From: Minisyncoccia bacterium
GTDB taxonomy: Bacteria > Patescibacteriota > Minisyncoccia > Phycocordibacterales > PALSA-1337
Length of the DNA: 64,000 nt
Reading direction: 5' to 3'
Assembly (NCBI GenBank): GCA_044228445.1
Contig: JBGAUV010000001.1
Location: 250,495 to 314,494, forward strand
In this document: positions 3,722 through 63,336 of the stretch, in pieces
Layout of the letters: every line of letters begins with the position of its first letter
Position numbering within the stretch: position 1 is the stretch's first letter
Program-made: the position numbers and the translations under genes
Notes under the pieces: model-generated
What the model was told of the DNA's origin: nothing
Seen by the model: the letters and a program-made list of their open reading frames with translations, nothing else
The model's database searches: none

Positions 3722-5250
3722 TTTAGTTAAGAGTTTGATCCTAGCTCAGGATGAACGCTGGCGGCGTGGATAAGGCATGCAAGTCAAACGGCTTAGCACT
3801 GTGCTCGCAAATTAATATTTGTTAGTAGAGTGCTAAGCAGTGGCAGACGAGGTAGTAATAAGCAGGTATCAACCTTCGAGTCAAGAATACCTCATCGAAA
3901 GATGAGTTAATACTTGATAGTCTCGAAAGAGTAAAGATTTATCGCTCGAAGATGAGCCTGTTCAGTATCAGCTAGTTGGTAGGGTAATGGCCTACCAAGG
4001 CTTCGACGCTTAGGGGAGGTGAGAGCCTGACCCCCACCGATGGAACTGAGACACGGTCCATACACCTACGGGTGGCCGCAGTCGAGAATCTTCCGCAATG
4101 GACGAAAGTCTGACGGAGCGACGCCGCGTGGATGATGAAGCACTTCGGTGCGTAAAATCCTTTTGCCAGGGAGAAAGTTTATTGATAGTACTTGGCGAAT
4201 AAGAGGTTGCTAAACTCGTGCCAGCAGCAGCGGTAATACGAGTGCCTCAAGCGTTATCCGGAATCATTGGGCGTAAAGGTTGTGTAGGTGGTTATATTAG
4301 TCTTTTGTTAAATTCTTCGGCTTAACCGGGGGCATGCAGAGGAAACGGTATAACTAGAGGATGCGAGGGGTTTCTGGAACTCATAGTGTAGCGGTAAAAT
4401 GCGTTGATATTATGGGGAACACCAAAAGCGAAGGCATGAAACTAGAGCACTCCTGACACTGAAACAAGAAAGCGTGGGTCGCGAATGGGATTAGATACCC
4501 CAGTAGTCCACGCCCTAAACGATCTTCTCTTGCTTTTCGGAGTATCGACCCTCCGAGAGGCGAAGCTAACGCGTTAAGAGAAGCGCCTGGGTAGTACGAC
4601 CGCAAGGTTAAAACTCAAAGGAATAGACGGGGACTTGCACAAGCGGTGGATCATGTGGCTCAATTCGACGGTAAACGAAGAACCTTACCAGGGTTTGAAA
4701 CCTAGCTGAATACTTTAGGAAACTAGAGTAGTCGCAAGACAGTTAGGCAGGTGATGCATGGCCGTCGTCAGTTCGTGGCTTGAGTTGTTCCCTTCAGTGG
4801 GGTAACGAACGCAACCCTCGTTGTCTGTTATATTTGTCAGGCGAGACTGCCCACGACATAGCGCATAAACTAAGTTTGTGCTCTGCGTCGTGGGAGGAAG
4901 GTGAGGATGACGCCAGGTCAGCATGTCCCTTTGATACCCTGGGCTGCACACGTGATACAATCGTATCTACAACAGGACGCAATACCGATAAAAGGTGGAG
5001 CAAATCCTTAGAAAAGATACGTCAGTTTGGATTGAGGTCTGCAACTCGACCTCATGAAACCGGAATCGCTAGTAATCGCAGATCAGCTATGCTGCGGTGA
5101 ATACGTTCTCAAGTCTTGTACTCACCGCCCGTCAACTCAAGGGAGTTGGGAGTACCCGAAGTCCGCGCTTGTCGCGGCCTAAGGTAAGCTCAATGACAGG
5201 GAGTAAGTCGTAACAAGGCACGGGTAGCGGAAGCTGCTCGTGGATTATTT
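3722..5250 (+). rRNA. rrs: 16S ribosomal RNA, divergent; 3' tail lacks CCUCC
   Basis: AGAGTTTGATCCTAGCTCAG at the 5' end; GTGCCAGCAGCAGCGGTAATAC, ATTAGATACCCCAGTAGTCC and AAGTCGTAACAAGG blocks; helix 45 with GGAA loop, then tail GATTATTTCAA. Confidence 0.9.
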
Positions 5251-5445
5251 CAAATTGAATCTTGATAATCCCTCAGGGATTATCTTACCGAGTCGATTTT
5301 TGTACTTAATTGTACAAACAAGGGATATTGTTCTACTACCTTACAGTGAACACTCAGTCTGCGAGAGAAAAGACAAAGATCGGTGTCCTCTATAGAGACA
5401 CTGATCGGATGAATGGAACAAAATAAAGTACAGTAATATGAAAGA

Positions 5446-5799: not shown

Positions 5800-6486
5800 A
5801 TGAAAATAAAATTTTTCAAAATAATAGTTTTAATAATAGCAATATTGTTCTCAAAACATGCTTTTGCAAAAGAAGTTATATGTCCTGAGGGGTATATTTG
5901 CTTACCAAAAAATGATCCACTTATACTTGCTTCAACAAGTCCTTGTTTTATAGGTTCAAGCATGACAACCTCTTTTAAGGATTTAGATTCAAAAGCTAAA
6001 TCAATAGGTGATAGTATTTCATTTAAATTATTAAATAAGAATAAAGATTACGCTGGTACTTGGGGAGTATTTAAAAGTGGAAGTGGATCAAGTCCTGATT
6101 ACAATAAAGATTGGGGTTTTGAACTAAGTCTAAATCTTTCAAAATTAAAAACCATAAAGTCTATTACAATTATAAACGATGATGGTAATGAAGGTTGGTC
6201 AACTAGTGCGGATGAAAAGTTATTTGGTAAAAAGCCTTATCCTCTTGTTGTTATAGATAAAAATGGAGAGCAATTAAATTATGAATATGAAGATACTATT
6301 TTTATACCAAAAGGTGAAAGTATTTTAAATCTATACGGTCAGATTGAATATAGTGACTTAAGAAATACGGAAATTGTTGTTATTTTCACTGATAATACTT
6401 ATTTGAATAGTAAGATTATTGAAAATGCTTCAACTCAAGCAAATAATAGTCTTTGGGCTAAGTTAAAATCTAAGTTTGGATTTTAA
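5800..6486 (+). CDS. Secreted hypothetical protein with N-terminal signal peptide
   Basis: MKIKFFKIIVLIIAILFSKHAFA followed by a Cys-containing mature region; no family recognised. Confidence 0.55.
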   Translation: MKIKFFKIIVLIIAILFSKHAFAKEVICPEGYICLPKNDPLILASTSPCFIGSSMTTSFKDLDSKAKSIGDSISFKLLNKNKDYAGTWGVFKSGSGSSPDYNKDWGFELSLNLSKLKTIKSITIINDDGNEGWSTSADEKLFGKKPYPLVVIDKNGEQLNYEYEDTIFIPKGESILNLYGQIEYSDLRNTEIVVIFTDNTYLNSKIIENASTQANNSLWAKLKSKFGF

Positions 6487-6591: not shown

Positions 6592-6664
6592 GCGCGTATA
6601 GCTCAGTTGGTAGAGCACACCACTGATACTGGTGGGGTCCCTGGTTCGAGTCCAGGTACGCGCA
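6592..6664 (+). tRNA. tRNA-Ile (anticodon GAU)
   Basis: Cloverleaf: acceptor gcgcgta/tacgcgc, D-arm tagctcagttggtagagca, anticodon loop cuGAUac, T-arm cctggttcgagtccagg; CCA not encoded. Confidence 0.85.
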
Positions 6665-6756
6665 CAAAGTTTTTATATTTCAAAAAATGTGGTAATGTAT
6701 TTGTGGAAAGGAGAAAAAATGACCGCATATACATTCGAAGGAAAAAAATAAAAAAT

Positions 6757-17840: not shown

Positions 17841-19019
17841 ATGAGCTTTAAGGAAATTTATAAAAATAAGCTCTTATTAAATGGAACTGTATTCATAATA
17901 TTTCTTGTCGTCTCTGTAAAAATTTCTAACATACCTTTTATATATAATGCATATACTAGTTCAATAACTGATGCACTCGGTACAACAACAATACTTTTAA
18001 ATAAAAAGAAAATTGTTCATATACAAACCCCTGAACCAGTAAAAGCTGTTTATATGACTAGCTGGGTAGCGGGGAATATAAAATTAAGAAATAAAGTTAT
18101 TGATTTAATAGATAAGACAGAAATAAATTCCATTGTAATAGACATAAAGGATTATACAGGCAGAATAAGTTTTAAAGTTGATGATGAAAAATTAAAAGAA
18201 ATTGGTTCTGTAGAAGAAAGAATACCAGATATTGTTGGTTTGATTGATATGTTACATGAAAAAAATATTTATGTAATTGGTAGAATATCTAGTTTTCAAG
18301 ATTCATATTTTGTAAAGAAATTCCCTCAATATTCTGTAAAGACAAAGAGTGGGGAAGTTTGGAAGGATTATAAAGGAATAAGTTGGCTTGATGCTGGTGC
18401 CGAACCCGTATGGGATTATCTGGTTAATATAGGTAATGAAGCATATTCAAAAGGTTTTGATGAATTAAATTTTGACTACATACGTTTTCCTTCAGATGGA
18501 AACATGATAGATATTTCATATACTTTCGGTAAAGGTAGAAATAGAGTAGATGTAATGAAAGATTTTTATGCTTTTATTGATAAATCTTTTAGACCAAAAG
18601 GAATTCCAATTTCAGCAGATTTATTTGGTATGACAACTTCAAATAGTGATGACTTGGGAATAGGACAAATTCTTGGAAATGCACTTATGCATTTTGATTA
18701 TGTTGCGCCAATGATATATCCATCGCACTACCCACCAAACTTCAATGGTTGGCCAAATCCTGCAAAGAAACCATATGATGTTATCAAGTTTGCCCTTGAA
18801 AGGGGAGTGAATAAAGCTGCAATTGCTAGCACAAGTCCAAATAAACTACGTCCTTGGTTACAAGACTTTGGTATAAATGGTGTTCCATATACTCCAGATA
18901 TGGTTCGTGAACAAATTAAGGCTACATATGATGTTGGTCTTACGAGTTGGATGATGTGGAATGCTTCAAATAATTATTCTCTACCAGCATATGAAGTTGC
19001 AACTAGTACGGGAGTTTAG
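17841..19019 (+). CDS. Putative glycoside hydrolase-like TIM-barrel protein (GHL/DUF4015-like) with N-terminal TM anchor
   Basis: VKAVYMTSWVAGN and LNFDYIRFPSDG motifs resembling GH-like families. Confidence 0.4.
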   Translation: MSFKEIYKNKLLLNGTVFIIFLVVSVKISNIPFIYNAYTSSITDALGTTTILLNKKKIVHIQTPEPVKAVYMTSWVAGNIKLRNKVIDLIDKTEINSIVIDIKDYTGRISFKVDDEKLKEIGSVEERIPDIVGLIDMLHEKNIYVIGRISSFQDSYFVKKFPQYSVKTKSGEVWKDYKGISWLDAGAEPVWDYLVNIGNEAYSKGFDELNFDYIRFPSDGNMIDISYTFGKGRNRVDVMKDFYAFIDKSFRPKGIPISADLFGMTTSNSDDLGIGQILGNALMHFDYVAPMIYPSHYPPNFNGWPNPAKKPYDVIKFALERGVNKAAIASTSPNKLRPWLQDFGINGVPYTPDMVREQIKATYDVGLTSWMMWNASNNYSLPAYEVATSTGV

Positions 19020-19022
19020 CTG

Positions 19023-19052
19023 TTGACAGAAAAGGTTGTTGCGTGCTAATAT
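19023..19052 (+). promoter_or_regulatory. Consensus sigma70 promoter TTGACA-N18-TAATAT driving the small RNA
   Basis: ttgacagaaaaggttgttgcgtgctaatat. Confidence 0.5.
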
Positions 19053-19058
19053 ATTTTT

Positions 19059-19190
19059 GCCACCCCAGAGGTATGAAATTGTTCCGTCGTCACCTCCTAG
19101 TGACCACAGGGTCATACCCCACGACGGGATGATCGATTACCTCTGAGGGTGGTATACGGCTTGCAGAATTTTTCTGCGGCCTTTTTTATT
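19059..19190 (+). ncRNA. Candidate structured small RNA carrying the CACCUCCU motif; family unassigned
   Basis: 14-bp outer stem ccaccccagaggta/tacctctgagggtgg; inner stem ccgtcgt/acgacgg; internal loop cacctcctag; 3' hairpin plus T-run; GC-richer than its flanks. Confidence 0.45.
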
Positions 19191-19216
19191 TATATTATAT
19201 TTATACACAATAAGTA

Positions 19217-19245
19217 TTGCCTTTTTCATATATTAGATGTACTAT
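19217..19245 (+). promoter_or_regulatory. Candidate promoter TTGCCT-N17-TACTAT for the small-ORF transcript
   Basis: ttgcctttttcatatattagatgtactat. Confidence 0.35.
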
Positions 19246-19344
19246 ATTTATCCGGATGCACTCTACCTCGGTTTACTACTAGGAGGTGGTAGACTCAATA
19301 GGGGTAAGGGGGAGCATTGAACCTAGTTAAGTTAGGAGGTCAAA

Positions 19345-19530
19345 GTGTCAAAGGAAAATCCTGTGACGTCATGGAGGGTGATCGGGAAGCCGGTAGTCCG
19401 AAGTGACGGACACAATATTGTCAAAGTCGATAATGGAGGAAAGAGGCCGAGAGAAGTCCTTGTACCAAAGGGCACTCCAGCCAAAAATTTCAACGCCTTT
19501 ATCAAGCAGGCATTGTATCCCACTTATTGA
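19345..19530 (+). CDS. Small SD-led hypothetical protein (61 aa, GTG start)
   Basis: TAGGAGGT 5 nt before GTG; GC-rich codons; followed by a GC-rich terminator. Confidence 0.45.
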   Translation: MSKENPVTSWRVIGKPVVRSDGHNIVKVDNGGKRPREVLVPKGTPAKNFNAFIKQALYPTY

Positions 19531-19566
19531 CATGACTGACACTTCCCCTACGGGGGAAAACTACAC

Positions 19567-19595
19567 CGCCGGGCCCAGTGGACCCGGCGGTTTTG
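19567..19595 (+). terminator. GC-rich rho-independent terminator
   Basis: ccgccgggcccagtggacccggcggtttt. Confidence 0.6.
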
Positions 19596-19657
19596 CATAT
19601 GTGGATAAATATTTCACCAATATAAAATATGGTATAATAGTATGAGTATAAAATCTC

Positions 19658-21521: not shown

Positions 21522-22727
21522 ATGGAAAAGGGGTTAAATACAGAGAAAAAGAGCAAAATACTGGTCTTTTCAGTAGCTTATTATCCTTATCTAATAGGAG
21601 GTGCCGAACTAGCGCTAAAAGAGATAACAGACAGAATCGGTGGAGATATGGATATTGATATGATTACTCTATATGCCGGAGAATCAAGATTGGAAAGAAT
21701 AGGGAATATAAATGTATATAGAGTTGGTCCAAAGATAAAATTAGTAAATGGAAAAATAACTCACATTCCTCTTTATGTGAAGTTATTGTATATGTTTTTT
21801 GCTTTCATAAAATCTTTATCACTCGAAAGACAAAAGAATTATGATTTTATTTGGTCTATGATGGCAAGTTTTTCTGGTTATGTTGCTTTATTTTTCAAAT
21901 TAATTAAACCAAAAAAGAAATTTTTATTAACACTACAGGAAGGTGACTCTCTTGAACATATAGAAAAAGCTATGGGTATTACATATCCAATTGCTAAACC
22001 TTTATATAGAAAAATATTTGAAAAAGCAGATATGATTCAAGCGATTTCAAAATTTCTCGGAGAATTTTCAAGAGATATGGGTTCAAAATGTCCAATTGAA
22101 ATAATTCCAAATGCAGTAGACTATAAACTTTTCTCAATGTCTCAACAGCAAGGTCAAATGAATGCACTTAGATCAGAACTAGGTTTAACAGAGAATGATA
22201 ATGTAATAATTACCACATCAAGATTGGTAATGAAAAATGCTATTGGAGATATTATAGATGCACTTACATATTTACCTTACAATACAAAGCTACTTATACT
22301 TGGTATTGGTTCTCAAGAAAAACTCTTAAAAGAAAAAGTTCAATTATTAAAACTTGATAATAGAGTACAGTTTATTGGTTATGTTCCATATAAAGAAATA
22401 CCACTATATTTAAGTATTTCAAATATATTTATTAGACCAAGTATATCAGAAGGTTTCGGTAATTCTTTTATTGAAGCAATGGCATCTGGAATACCAGTAA
22501 TAGCAACACCTGTAGGAGGAATAGTTGATTTTCTTTTTGATAATGAAACAGGTTTCTTTTGTAAGGTAAAAGATCCAAAAAGCATAGCTGATAAAATAGA
22601 CTATATAACTAACAATGTTGAAATAAGAGAAAAAGTAATAAAGAATGCAAAGAAAATGGTTAGTGAAAAATATGATTGGGATAAAATTGCTCAAGATATG
22701 AAGGTTAAAGTAATAGAAAAAATGTAA
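21522..22727 (+). CDS. Glycosyltransferase family 4
   Basis: GFGNSFIEAMASGIPVIATPVGG C-terminal GT-B motif. Confidence 0.8.
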   Translation: MEKGLNTEKKSKILVFSVAYYPYLIGGAELALKEITDRIGGDMDIDMITLYAGESRLERIGNINVYRVGPKIKLVNGKITHIPLYVKLLYMFFAFIKSLSLERQKNYDFIWSMMASFSGYVALFFKLIKPKKKFLLTLQEGDSLEHIEKAMGITYPIAKPLYRKIFEKADMIQAISKFLGEFSRDMGSKCPIEIIPNAVDYKLFSMSQQQGQMNALRSELGLTENDNVIITTSRLVMKNAIGDIIDALTYLPYNTKLLILGIGSQEKLLKEKVQLLKLDNRVQFIGYVPYKEIPLYLSISNIFIRPSISEGFGNSFIEAMASGIPVIATPVGGIVDFLFDNETGFFCKVKDPKSIADKIDYITNNVEIREKVIKNAKKMVSEKYDWDKIAQDMKVKVIEKM

Positions 22728-59210: not shown

Positions 59211-60224
59211 ATGTTAATAGGAAAAGCATCACCAGAAGATACAAGTCTACACCCAATAAAGTATAAATGGGCTTATGATCTATACAATCAAGCAGTTAGA
59301 AATACTTGGTTTCCACATGAAATTACTCTAAAAGAGGATATGGATGATTGGAAGAAGATGACTGATGATGAAAGACATGCAGTTACATTCCTAATGGCAT
59401 TCTTTAACCCTGCAGAACTTATTGTAAATCGTTCAATTGCTTTAGGAATTTACCCTTATCTAAAGTCTCCAGAGTGCCATCTTTATCTAGCAAAACAAAT
59501 GTGGGAAGAGGCAAATCACTGTGTGGCTTTTGAATATGTTCTAGAAACATTTCCTTTTGATAGAGAAAAAATATATAACCTTCATCTTGAAGTTCCTTCA
59601 ATGAAAGCAAAAGAGGATTATATAAATAAATACATGAAGAGAATGACCGATGTTTCTCTAGATGTAAGTACTACAGAAGGTAAAAAAGATTTTATACGAA
59701 ATCTTGTTGCTACAAACATTGTGATGGAAGGAATATGGTTCTATTCAGGTTTTATGGTTGCTCTTTCATTCCGTCAGAGAAAACAACTTAGAAACTTCGG
59801 TTCTATGATTAACTGGGTTTTGAGAGATGAAAGTCTTCACTTAAAATTCGGTATGAACCTTATTCACAATATCTTGGAGGAAAATCATGATCTATTAACT
59901 GAAGATTTTGCAAATGAAATAAGAAATATAATCATAGAAGGAGTTGATAAAGAAGTTGATTATAATATGGATCTTTTCCCAAACGGTATTCTTGGTCTAA
60001 ATGCTGATTATGTTAATCAATACGTAAAGTATGTTACAGATCGTCGCCTAGAAGAACTAGGTTTTCCTCCACACTACAATGCTACAAACCCAGCAAAATG
60101 GATGTCTACTGCTACAGATGTTTATGAGCTTGTTAATTTCTTTGAAGCACAAAATACAAGTTATGAAGTAGATGTAAGAGCACATTCAGAAAAGAAAGAG
60201 GAGAAGAAAGAGGCGGGGGAGTAA
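59211..60224 (+). CDS. nrdB: Ribonucleotide reductase beta subunit
   Basis: Di-iron ligand pattern EEANHCVAFEY and MEGIWFYSGF; 337 aa. Confidence 0.9.
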   Translation: MLIGKASPEDTSLHPIKYKWAYDLYNQAVRNTWFPHEITLKEDMDDWKKMTDDERHAVTFLMAFFNPAELIVNRSIALGIYPYLKSPECHLYLAKQMWEEANHCVAFEYVLETFPFDREKIYNLHLEVPSMKAKEDYINKYMKRMTDVSLDVSTTEGKKDFIRNLVATNIVMEGIWFYSGFMVALSFRQRKQLRNFGSMINWVLRDESLHLKFGMNLIHNILEENHDLLTEDFANEIRNIIIEGVDKEVDYNMDLFPNGILGLNADYVNQYVKYVTDRRLEELGFPPHYNATNPAKWMSTATDVYELVNFFEAQNTSYEVDVRAHSEKKEEKKEAGE

Positions 60225-60226
60225 TT

Positions 60227-60646
60227 ATGTTAGTTGTTAAGACTAAAATTAAAAATAGTGAAATTGAAGGACTAGGTCTATTTGCTGATCAGTTTATACC
60301 TAAAGGTAGTGTAATTTGGAAATATGATCCAAGTTTTGATATTTATTTTGATCCTAAGGAGGTAGAAAAAATGTCAGAACCGCAAAAAGACCTGATAATA
60401 CATTTTGCTTATCTTTCAAAAAAAAGTGGTAAATATGTTTATTCAATAGATAATACAAGATTCACAAATCATTCAAATAAACCAAATACCGTAGAAGATG
60501 AAAATGTTTGTAGTGATGATTTAGAAATATGTACTATTGCTGTTAAGGATATTCAAATAGGGGAGGAAATTACTATTGATTATCGGGTAATTGACGCAGT
60601 GGATGAAGGTAGTAATGAGGAGTATTTGAAGACGGTAGTTCTATAG
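60227..60646 (+). CDS. Small SET-domain protein (putative lysine methyltransferase), co-operonic with nrdAB
   Basis: EIEGLGLFA...NHS..PN...IQIGEEITIDY SET motifs. Confidence 0.6.
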   Translation: MLVVKTKIKNSEIEGLGLFADQFIPKGSVIWKYDPSFDIYFDPKEVEKMSEPQKDLIIHFAYLSKKSGKYVYSIDNTRFTNHSNKPNTVEDENVCSDDLEICTIAVKDIQIGEEITIDYRVIDAVDEGSNEEYLKTVVL

Positions 60647-63200: not shown

Positions 63201-63336
63201 AAAAAAGTGACTGAATCAATCCAGGCCTCGTGTATATACATAAAAGTAAACACGAGGCTTTGAATTTTATATATCACACTTATATTTTAATAAATAACCA
63301 TTTGCCATAATATATTAAGATATGGTATAATTATTA

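Follow-up and report, generated by a model that had tools for sequence, protein, structure and literature searches.

A candidate antisense small RNA with an exposed anti-Shine-Dalgarno-like motif beside a small-protein gene in a Paceibacteria genome whose 16S rRNA is without the anti-Shine-Dalgarno motif

A stretch of 64,000 nucleotides (64 kb; the window in what follows) from a tiny Paceibacteria (Parcubacteria) genome of 29% GC contains a short GC-rich island in which two adjacent transcription units, RNA1 and RNA2, were predicted on the + strand. RNA1 is a putative small RNA (sRNA) displaying a motif that resembles the anti-Shine-Dalgarno (anti-SD) sequence of 16S rRNA, and RNA2 is a putative mRNA for a 61-amino-acid (aa) protein, the 5' leader of which carries two GGAGG boxes complementary to that motif. 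On balance, and with somewhat better than an even chance of being right, RNA1 is considered to be an antisense sRNA, encoded next to its target, that blocks access to the start region of the small-protein mRNA. This reading is based on an exact 11-nt complementarity between the two RNAs, on the retention of the motif pair in diverged relatives, and on the absence of the anti-SD sequence from the 16S rRNA of the same genome.

The following features were located in the window:

19023-19052, + strand: RNA1 promoter (TTGACA at 19023-19028, 18-nt spacer, extended -10 element TGcTAATAT at 19044-19052, with TAATAT at 19047-19052)
19059-19153, + strand: RNA1 body, a single long hairpin
19091-19101, + strand: anti-SD-like seed of RNA1, CACCUCCUAGU, with the core ACCUCC at 19092-19097
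19158-19187, + strand: RNA1 intrinsic terminator (hairpin 19158-19181, followed by T6 at 19182-19187)
19217-19245, + strand: RNA2 promoter, read from the sequence (TTGCCT at 19217-19222, 17-nt spacer, TACTAT at 19240-19245)
19252-19344, + strand: RNA2 5' leader (single-stranded CCGGAUG, long stem-loop 19255-19318, start region)
19278-19288, + strand: GGAGG box 1, ACUAGGAGGUG, spanning the apical loop and the 3' shoulder of the hairpin in the leader
19331-19341, + strand: GGAGG box 2, GUUAGGAGGUC, 5 nt upstream of the GTG start
19345-19530, + strand: small open reading frame (ORF) of 61 aa with a GTG start, referred to as type A
19543-19594, + strand: RNA2 3' untranslated region (UTR), with a hairpin (19543-19558) and an intrinsic terminator (19565-19594)
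17841-19019: DUF4015 gene, directly 5' of the RNA1 promoter (Pfam E = 4e-95)
3723-5255: 16S rRNA gene (Rfam, 1341 bits)

Complementarity between RNA1 and the RNA2 leader

Over 11 nt, the RNA1 segment CACCTCCTAGT (19091-19101) is perfectly complementary to ACTAGGAGGTG (19278-19288) in the RNA2 leader, a length reached by 1 of 1000 shuffled RNA1 sequences, and the duplex of the seed with box 1 has an energy of -22.1 kcal/mol. An earlier note on this DNA had reported a perfect 10-nt match at this place, which is real and in fact extends to 11 nt, as well as an 8/10 complement to the start-proximal box, which was recovered as 8 Watson-Crick pairs plus one G-U pair: with box 2 (GUUAGGAGGU, 19331-19340) the seed forms a duplex of 9 bp with an energy of -14.2 kcal/mol.

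Related loci (numbered with the prefix L) were gathered via the small protein, the DUF4015 protein in GTDB genomes, a DNA pattern from the TraD-like gene in metagenomes, DUF4015 homologues and small-protein homologues. The relatives are metagenome-assembled genomes of Paceibacteria/Parcubacteria, namely Nomura-, Taylor-, Zambryski- and Niyogibacteria. When each RNA1 was compared with the leader of its own locus, the longest Watson-Crick complement, 7 to 11 nt in length, included CCUCC:GGAGG in all nine cases. The longest match, its site in the leader and its shuffle-based P value were as follows:

Window: 11 nt; loop box; P = 0.001
L001: 9 nt; loop box; P = 0.02
L007: 7 nt; start-proximal box; P = 0.29
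L008: 8 nt; 5' end of the leader, with an equal 8-nt match at the start-proximal box; P = 0.06
L009: 10 nt; UAGCACCUCC:GGAGGUGCUA, abutting the AUG; P = 0.002
L061: 7 nt; loop box; P = 0.35
L062: 7 nt; loop box; P = 0.35
L063: 11 nt; CUGUAACCUCC:GGAGGUUACAG, abutting the GUG; P = 0.001
L066: 7 nt; loop box; P = 0.25

The start-proximal box is thus the best-matching site in L007, L009 and L063. Extensions of the complement beyond the shared core, to 9-11 nt, use allele-specific flanking bases, and cognate RNA1:leader pairs outdo non-cognate pairs for the window, L009 and L063. Local RNA1:leader duplex energies range from -14 to -24 kcal/mol; whole-length RNAduplex comparisons of RNA1 with RNA2 were uninformative, as they force unrealistic full-length duplexes. 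Judged from the sequences, this pattern is the one expected of a seed-type sRNA-mRNA interaction that is maintained by selection.

RNA1 as a putative stand-alone small RNA

A promoter-driven structured RNA with an exposed motif and a terminator had been described in the earlier note, and each of these sequence features was located where it had been claimed. The RNA1 promoter, a near-consensus sigma-70 type, was the top promoter-like site in the scan (10/12 match) and begins 4 nt past the DUF4015 stop codon. The segment is GC-richer than its surroundings, as had been noted (0.48-0.50 inside the island versus about 0.29 for the window). The RNA1 body (19059-19153) is predicted to fold with an energy of -64.4 kcal/mol (z = -8.0 against 200 dinucleotide shuffles) into an outer stem, a UGAA/CGAU internal loop, a 13-bp stem, an inner internal loop and a 6-bp apical hairpin. 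The outer stem has 15 bp rather than the 14 bp reported before, and the 7-bp inner stem reported with it is real, though it is part of the 13-bp stem. The unpaired 5' side of the inner internal loop is CACCUCCUA, and the unpaired probability of ACCUCC in the window is 0.86, compared with a mean of 0.31 over RNA1. Bounded by a promoter and a terminator, RNA1 (about 19059-19187) appears from these signals to be a stand-alone sRNA of about 125 nt.

The motif is predicted to be unpaired, not buried in a helix, and no known family was matched when covariance models were applied: Rfam 15 gave no family at the gathering score or at E ≤ 10 for RNA1 and the RNA2 leader of the window, and no family at E ≤ 1 for six other loci. 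ARAGORN detected no tRNA or tmRNA in the region. The identity of RNA1 or RNA2 as SRP RNA, 6S RNA, tmRNA or RNase P RNA was ruled out, since no model matched, RNA1 is hypervariable, and the RNase P RNA gene lies at 63333.

RNA1 alleles in related genomes

RNA1 was found in the window and in L001-3, L005, L006, L007, L008, L009 (= L056), L061, L062, L063 and L066, all of which belong to genomes confined to one subclade of about 30-33% GC. These sequences represent seven allele types (window/L005, L001-3/6, L007, L008/9, L061, L062/63 and L066), which have in common the promoter TTGACA-N15-TGcTAnnnT, followed by a hairpin 85-120 nt long and then a terminator. This comparison supports the core of the antisense idea put forward in the earlier note: promoter, hairpin and unpaired ACCUCC persist in all seven allele types although the remainder of the RNA diverges, and GGAGG boxes are present in their own leaders.

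The body of RNA1 itself is hypervariable, with 52% identity between the window and L007, whereas the promoter, terminator, spacers and RNA2 are 97-98% identical; the terminator is identical in L007 despite the differing body. The body is swapped as a block between these two loci (window 19059-19157 versus L007:7219-7313), and metagenome contigs L004, L052 and L056 stop at or near RNA1, as expected if strain heterogeneity breaks assemblies. A diversity-generating retroelement or a retron is an unlikely source of the hypervariability: by eye, the substitutions are not adenine-specific, and the adjacent genes that were checked are not reverse transcriptases.

The fold is retained through this divergence. 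An RNAalifold consensus of seven sequences, from which L008/9 and L066 were left out as too diverged, has 22 pairs, of which four show compensatory double changes (C-G to U-A; A-U to U-A or C-G; U-A to C-G; C-G to A-U), and many G-U-neutral changes occur besides. In addition, a U-A to C-G exchange distinguishes the RNA1 outer stems of L008 and L009, and the wobble-preserving changes among close strains are compatible with the + strand only.

ACCUCC is kept in an unpaired stretch in 7/7 allele types while its place in the fold varies: the 5' side of the internal loop (window, L001), the 3' side (L007, L008/9, L061), both sides (L062/63) or the apical loop (L066). Nine of the ten sequences leave it unpaired with a probability of 0.74-1.0, and L008 with one of 0.48, compared with RNA-wide means of 0.25-0.38. 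The chance of finding ACCUCC in a shuffled RNA1 allele is 0.02-0.04.

A covariance model of the seven-sequence subset (R1) retrieved only its training sequences and no further RNA1 in 596 kb of the window and related loci. When strongly folding, non-coding DNA was searched by descriptor for unpaired ACCUCC, all known RNA1 genes but that of L061 came up, together with a repeat region in L049 (560-1010, - strand). In the latter, a GC-rich intergenic island, the 21-nt repeat GGAATGATTCACGTCTAAATG is present three times along with an unpaired ACCUCC; the region is apparently unrelated to RNA1.

Absence of the anti-Shine-Dalgarno sequence from the 16S rRNA

The 3' end of the 16S rRNA in the window reads ...GUAACAAGGCACGGGUAGCGGAAGCUGCUCGUGGAUUAUUUCAAAU (also excerpted as GGAUUAUUUC, ...GCUGCUCGUGGAUUAUUUCAAAUUG and GGAUUAUUUCAAAU). 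Helix 45 is present, and a UAUUUC tail stands where CACCUCC is expected. The canonical CACCUCCU, the octamer which RNA1 displays, is missing, as the earlier note had stated. No CCTCC was found between the 16S end (5255) and tRNA-Ile, and no 23S rRNA gene was detected inside the 64-kb window. Loss of the anti-SD motif in about half of the Parcubacteria is already known (Tsurumaki et al. 2022, PMC9297842). Downstream of the 16S rRNA gene lie, in order, a 228-aa ORF without a Pfam match (5800-6486), tRNA-Ile (6592-6665) and a pyruvate kinase gene.

SD-like sequences are rare among the genes of the window. An SD-like tetramer (GGAG, GAGG or AGGA) is present at -22 to -4 in 3 of the 46 long ORFs, and in 40 related loci typically 0-2 of about 10 genes per locus have one. 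One window gene, a SET-domain gene at 60200-60646 (139 aa, Pfam E = 9e-16), is preceded by the purine-rich SD-like stretch GAGGCGGGGGAG, which is rare among window genes. CACCTCCT occurs once on the + strand of the window, and TAGGAGGT occurs three times in the window, with two of the occurrences in RNA2. The third copy of the box, TAGGAGGTG at 21595-21603, lies 73 nt into a GT4 glycosyltransferase gene, where it encodes I-G-G-A and forms a 9-nt complement of the RNA1 seed; it probably reflects coding constraint and is probably not a target of RNA1.

Because the 16S rRNA lacks the anti-SD sequence, the GGAGG boxes cannot act as ribosomal SD sequences. The assignment of the start-proximal GGAGG as the SD of the GTG ORF, which the earlier note had made, was therefore ruled out.

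The RNA2 leader and the small protein

The position of the RNA2 promoter is kept upstream of a CCRGAUG 5' end in relatives. Single-stranded CCRGAUG (CCGGAUG, CCAGAUG or CCGGAGG) opens the leaders in >25 loci from a broad range of Paceibacteria, whatever ORF follows (e.g. L010:7110, L021:7160, L055, L057 and L188-L191), and the RNase P RNA gene of the window (63333) likewise begins ...ACCAGACAG. Its role could be that of an initial transcribed sequence, or it could mark a site of processing or of protein binding.

Within the subclade closest to the window, GGAG(G) is found in the apical loop of the leader, namely in the window, L008, L009, L061-63, L066, L032, L055, L059 and L019, with differing stem sequences. 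Changes in the leader stem keep the pairing: two are wobble-preserving (L052), and one, an A-U to G-C exchange in L061, is compensatory. RNA1 was seen only beside leaders that have a GGAGG apical loop.

The 61-codon GTG ORF described before exists at 19345-19530. A word-indexed search with the 61-aa protein retrieved only P0001, which is 97% identical, and an exhaustive HMMER scan of 1.84 billion representatives added P0122 (53% identity, E = 8e-13) and P0123 (44%, E = 2.8e-9). The genes for P0122 and P0123 have the equivalent location, with DUF4015 upstream and type IV pilin and PilD genes downstream. The AlphaFold2 model of the protein is beta-beta-beta-alpha with a predicted local distance difference test (pLDDT) score of 81, and no match to it was found in Pfam, PHROG or PDB. 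From these homologues and the modelled fold, RNA2 (about 19252-19594) is taken to be a genuine mRNA and encodes a real small protein. The possibility that RNA2 is a non-coding structured RNA was rejected on the basis of the protein homologues and the confident fold.

Just 5' of box 2 (19331-19334), the window (AAGUUAGGAGG) differs from all the sister strains L001-L007 (A--UGAGGAGG) by one substitution and a 2-nt indel. In these strains the upstream frame stays open and gene callers give an 80-aa P0001 that starts inside box 1; this start is probably an annotation artefact.

A conserved slot with exchangeable contents

The arrangement of promoter, CCRGAUG 5' end, long stem-loop, small GC-rich ORF and strong terminator is found in the same slot in >25 related loci, with DUF4015 before it and TraD/TrwB-like ATPase or pilin genes after it. 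A horizontal origin had been suggested for the GC-rich island from its composition. This suggestion did not hold, as the island occupies the same slot between DUF4015 and TraD-like or pilin genes in many related Paceibacteria. It follows from this synteny that the slot is vertically inherited, and comparison of the sequences indicates that its contents are exchanged among relatives. No similarity to phages or plasmids was found by blastn, and scans of viral contigs with the 3' UTR and the leader 5' end gave no matches or chance 15-mer matches only. The alternative reading offered in the earlier note, that RNA1 is a decoy for SD-bearing foreign mRNAs, is left unsupported; no result bears on it.

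Exchange of the ORF is seen in two pairs of loci. L062 (3990-4230) and L063 (1660-1960) have an identical DUF4015 protein, and their RNA1, leader and 3' UTR are 97-99.7% identical (97% for the RNA2 3' UTR), although the ORFs are unrelated (63-aa type A versus 89-aa type B, 17% alignment identity); the break points of the swap are exactly the start codon and TGACACTTTCCC. Similarly, the ORFs of L008 (5470-5740) and L009 (7600-7930) have 31% aa identity within flanks that are about 95% identical. The small-ORF body (window 19345-19530, L062/L063, L008/L009) thus behaves, as judged by these alignments, as an exchangeable cassette.

Proposed mechanism and alternative explanations

In the proposed mechanism, the hairpin scaffold of RNA1 would present the unpaired ACCUCC seed (CACCUCCUAGU in the window), which would base-pair in trans with the GGAGGU boxes in the 5' UTR of the adjacent RNA2. 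At the start-proximal box, the duplex would keep the 30S subunit from binding by steric hindrance and thereby repress translation without involvement of SD recognition; at the loop box, pairing might provide a rapid initial loop-loop contact, change the 5' stem-loop, which probably protects the mRNA, or do both. The boxes would be operator sites for RNA1, the SD:anti-SD pair being reused as a private recognition code. They are read as sRNA operators and not as ribosome-docking sites because the 16S rRNA is without an anti-SD and the genes are without SDs, and the short duplex would be effectively private to RNA1 and RNA2 because the ribosome lacks the anti-SD and the genome is almost SD-free. 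We infer that RNA1 and RNA2 are transcribed, that they pair in vivo and that the effect is repressive, the sign of the regulation being taken from the geometry alone.

Several observations weigh against this reading. Four allele types (L007, L061, L062 and L066) match their leaders over 7 nt only, which is a chance length, so that in these types only the position of the match on the motif is non-random. For the RNA1 of L061, the L008/9 leader is a better partner (9 nt) than that of its own locus (7 nt). In L032, L055, L059 and L019, a leader with a GGAGG loop is present with no RNA1 separating it from the DUF4015 gene; therefore either the boxes have a different partner, now or in the past, or the sRNA of those genomes is encoded elsewhere. 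Finally, no RNA chaperone was identified: neither Hfq nor CsrA was found in the 64-kb window of the contig, which is at least 371 kb long (CsrA by tblastn with E. coli and B. subtilis queries), so that this result is not decisive.

A special case of the antisense reading is a type I toxin-antitoxin (TA) or conflict module, in which the small protein would be growth-inhibitory or serve defence or offence, RNA1 would be the RNA antitoxin that keeps its translation off, and the hypervariable cassettes would reflect the diversifying selection typical of conflict loci. Some layout features agree with it: a neighbouring sRNA is complementary to the leader and ribosome-binding site (RBS) of a small ORF with a highly structured 5' UTR (11 nt in the leader loop and 9 bp at the start-proximal box in the window, 7-11 nt across all alleles), ORF bodies have been exchanged between loci otherwise 97-99.7% identical (L062 versus L063; also L008 versus L009), the RNA1 body is swapped between the window and L007, and the type B cassettes (L061, L063) have a cationic amphipathic C-terminal helix by sequence inspection. 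The proteins themselves do not resemble the small hydrophobic membrane-active toxins, usually <60 aa, of such systems. All six small-protein cassettes tested are hydrophilic, with grand averages of hydropathy (GRAVY) of -0.2 to -0.8 and no membrane-like segments; the window protein has a GRAVY of -0.58 and a maximum 15-aa hydropathy of 0.27, and type A is modelled as a confident soluble beta-beta-beta-alpha fold. For this protein the type-I-TA-like label given in the earlier note is not sustained. Moreover, toxin matches are absent in Pfam, PHROG and PDB, the genes are in tandem, neither divergent nor overlapping, and the small-ORF slot is widespread without RNA1, which is hard to square with an unguarded toxin. 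A TA or conflict module is thus regarded as unlikely.

It was also considered that the GGAGG boxes bind a protein, such as a CsrA-like GGA-recognising regulator or another factor, and that RNA1 is unrelated to them or is a competitor that masks the sites. One GGA in an apical loop and one over the RBS make up the classical architecture of a CsrA target, as in the B. subtilis hag leader, and the layout of the RNA2 leader, with box 1 in the apical loop and box 2 located 5 nt from the start, matches it. The GGAGG-loop leaders without an adjacent RNA1 also point this way, as they suggest that the boxes predate RNA1 or are independent of it. On the other hand, the search for a CsrA homologue, which covered the 64 kb of the window, was negative, and a protein partner would leave unexplained both the exposed ACCUCC in every RNA1 allele and the 9-11-nt complementarity with allele-specific flanks. 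We consider a protein partner of this kind to be quite unlikely.

A third explanation, that a small gene from an SD-using donor carries a decaying SD and that RNA1 is an unrelated structured RNA or a strong terminator with a chance CCUCC, would fit the GC-rich island and the third-position GC of the ORF (about 51% by hand count over 61 codons), which is atypical at a genome GC of 29%. It is disfavoured, and its probability is very low: the 11-nt match has a P of about 0.001, the motif pair is retained in seven diverged allele types, the slot, promoter and leader are syntenic across the clade, phage or plasmid matches are absent, the RNA1 promoter is perfectly conserved, and the 52% identity of the bodies speaks against RNA1 alleles as recent copies of one another.

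Least probable of all, RNA1 might be a trans-acting replacement for the lost 16S anti-SD, an adaptor or activator that bridges a few GGAGG-led messages to the ribosome for selective translation and that would constitute an 'outsourced' anti-SD giving specialised translation instead of a repressor; the agreement of its motif with the canonical 16S tail does reach past the CCUCC core (in the window CACCUCCU, in L061 CACCUCCUUA), the host 16S is without that sequence, and the start-proximal box lies at canonical SD spacing, but RNA1 shows no feature suggesting ribosome binding, its scaffold is hypervariable, unlike that of a ribosome-docking RNA, it is limited to one subclade of ~30-33% GC, and an sRNA duplex over an RBS normally blocks rather than promotes initiation.

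Significance and comparison with known systems

To our knowledge, regulatory RNAs of the Candidate Phyla Radiation (CPR) are almost unexplored. Literature searches gave no description of a base-pairing sRNA in Parcubacteria, or of such an sRNA in CPR bacteria.

If RNA1 acts as an antisense sRNA, the locus illustrates how, after the SD:anti-SD interaction was abandoned and the genome became almost SD-free, the same 6-11-nt duplex could be reused as a specific code between one sRNA and one mRNA. It also presents a conserved 'expression platform' of promoter, leader and 3' UTR that receives unrelated small ORFs among close relatives, and a compact, testable sRNA-mRNA pair. As it adjoins type IV pilus and TraD-like genes, the locus is a candidate conflict or host-interaction locus in episymbionts.

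We regard RNA1 as a new sRNA family of a known mechanistic kind, set apart from curated families by the negative Rfam scans, in an unusual setting in which the ribosome is without an anti-SD and the sRNA body and the target ORF both behave as exchangeable cassettes. Housekeeping hairpin RNAs (SRP 4.5S, 6S) have a slowly evolving, model-detectable core, and RNA1 differs from them in its lack of an Rfam match and in a body that is 52% identical between strains whose flanks are 97-98% identical. With the 16S 3' tail (...GAUCACCUCCUUA-3'), RNA1 shares the same sequence CACCUCCU and the same partner AGGAGGUG; in RNA1, however, the motif is displayed by an internal loop, and the gene is a separate one, bounded by a promoter and a terminator of its own and about 14 kb away from the 16S rRNA gene.

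The RNA2 leader resembles CsrA-controlled leaders (B. subtilis hag) and the STAB-SD 5' stabiliser of B. thuringiensis cryIIIA, in that one GGA/GGAGG is in a 5'-proximal hairpin loop and a second at the RBS, and in that an SD-like sequence serves something other than start-site selection. It differs from them in its partner, which we infer to be an RNA and neither CsrA nor the 16S tail. Among the type I pairs of E. coli, IstR-1/tisB, OhsC/shoB, Orz/zor and AgrB/dinQ resemble RNA1/RNA2 in that the sRNA gene adjoins a small ORF without overlapping it, in that complementarity of about 10-20 nt is directed at a structured 5' UTR, and in that control is at translation initiation, whereas these pairs are divergent and encode hydrophobic membrane toxins, and RNA1 and RNA2 are in tandem with hydrophilic proteins.

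RsaE/RoxS of the Firmicutes (Rfam RF01820) and similar sRNAs with an anti-SD seed are, like RNA1, short and terminator-ended with unpaired C-rich motifs, which pair with G-rich ribosome-binding regions and block initiation, the same action that is proposed for RNA1; the unpaired ACCUCC of RNA1 and its complementarity to the GGAGGU boxes correspond to this type. RNA1 has no homology in sequence or structure to RsaE/RoxS, as the Rfam scans indicated, and carries one or two ACCUCC on a long hypervariable hairpin. Its apparent target is one adjacent gene and not a regulon, and the boxes of its host are not functional SDs.

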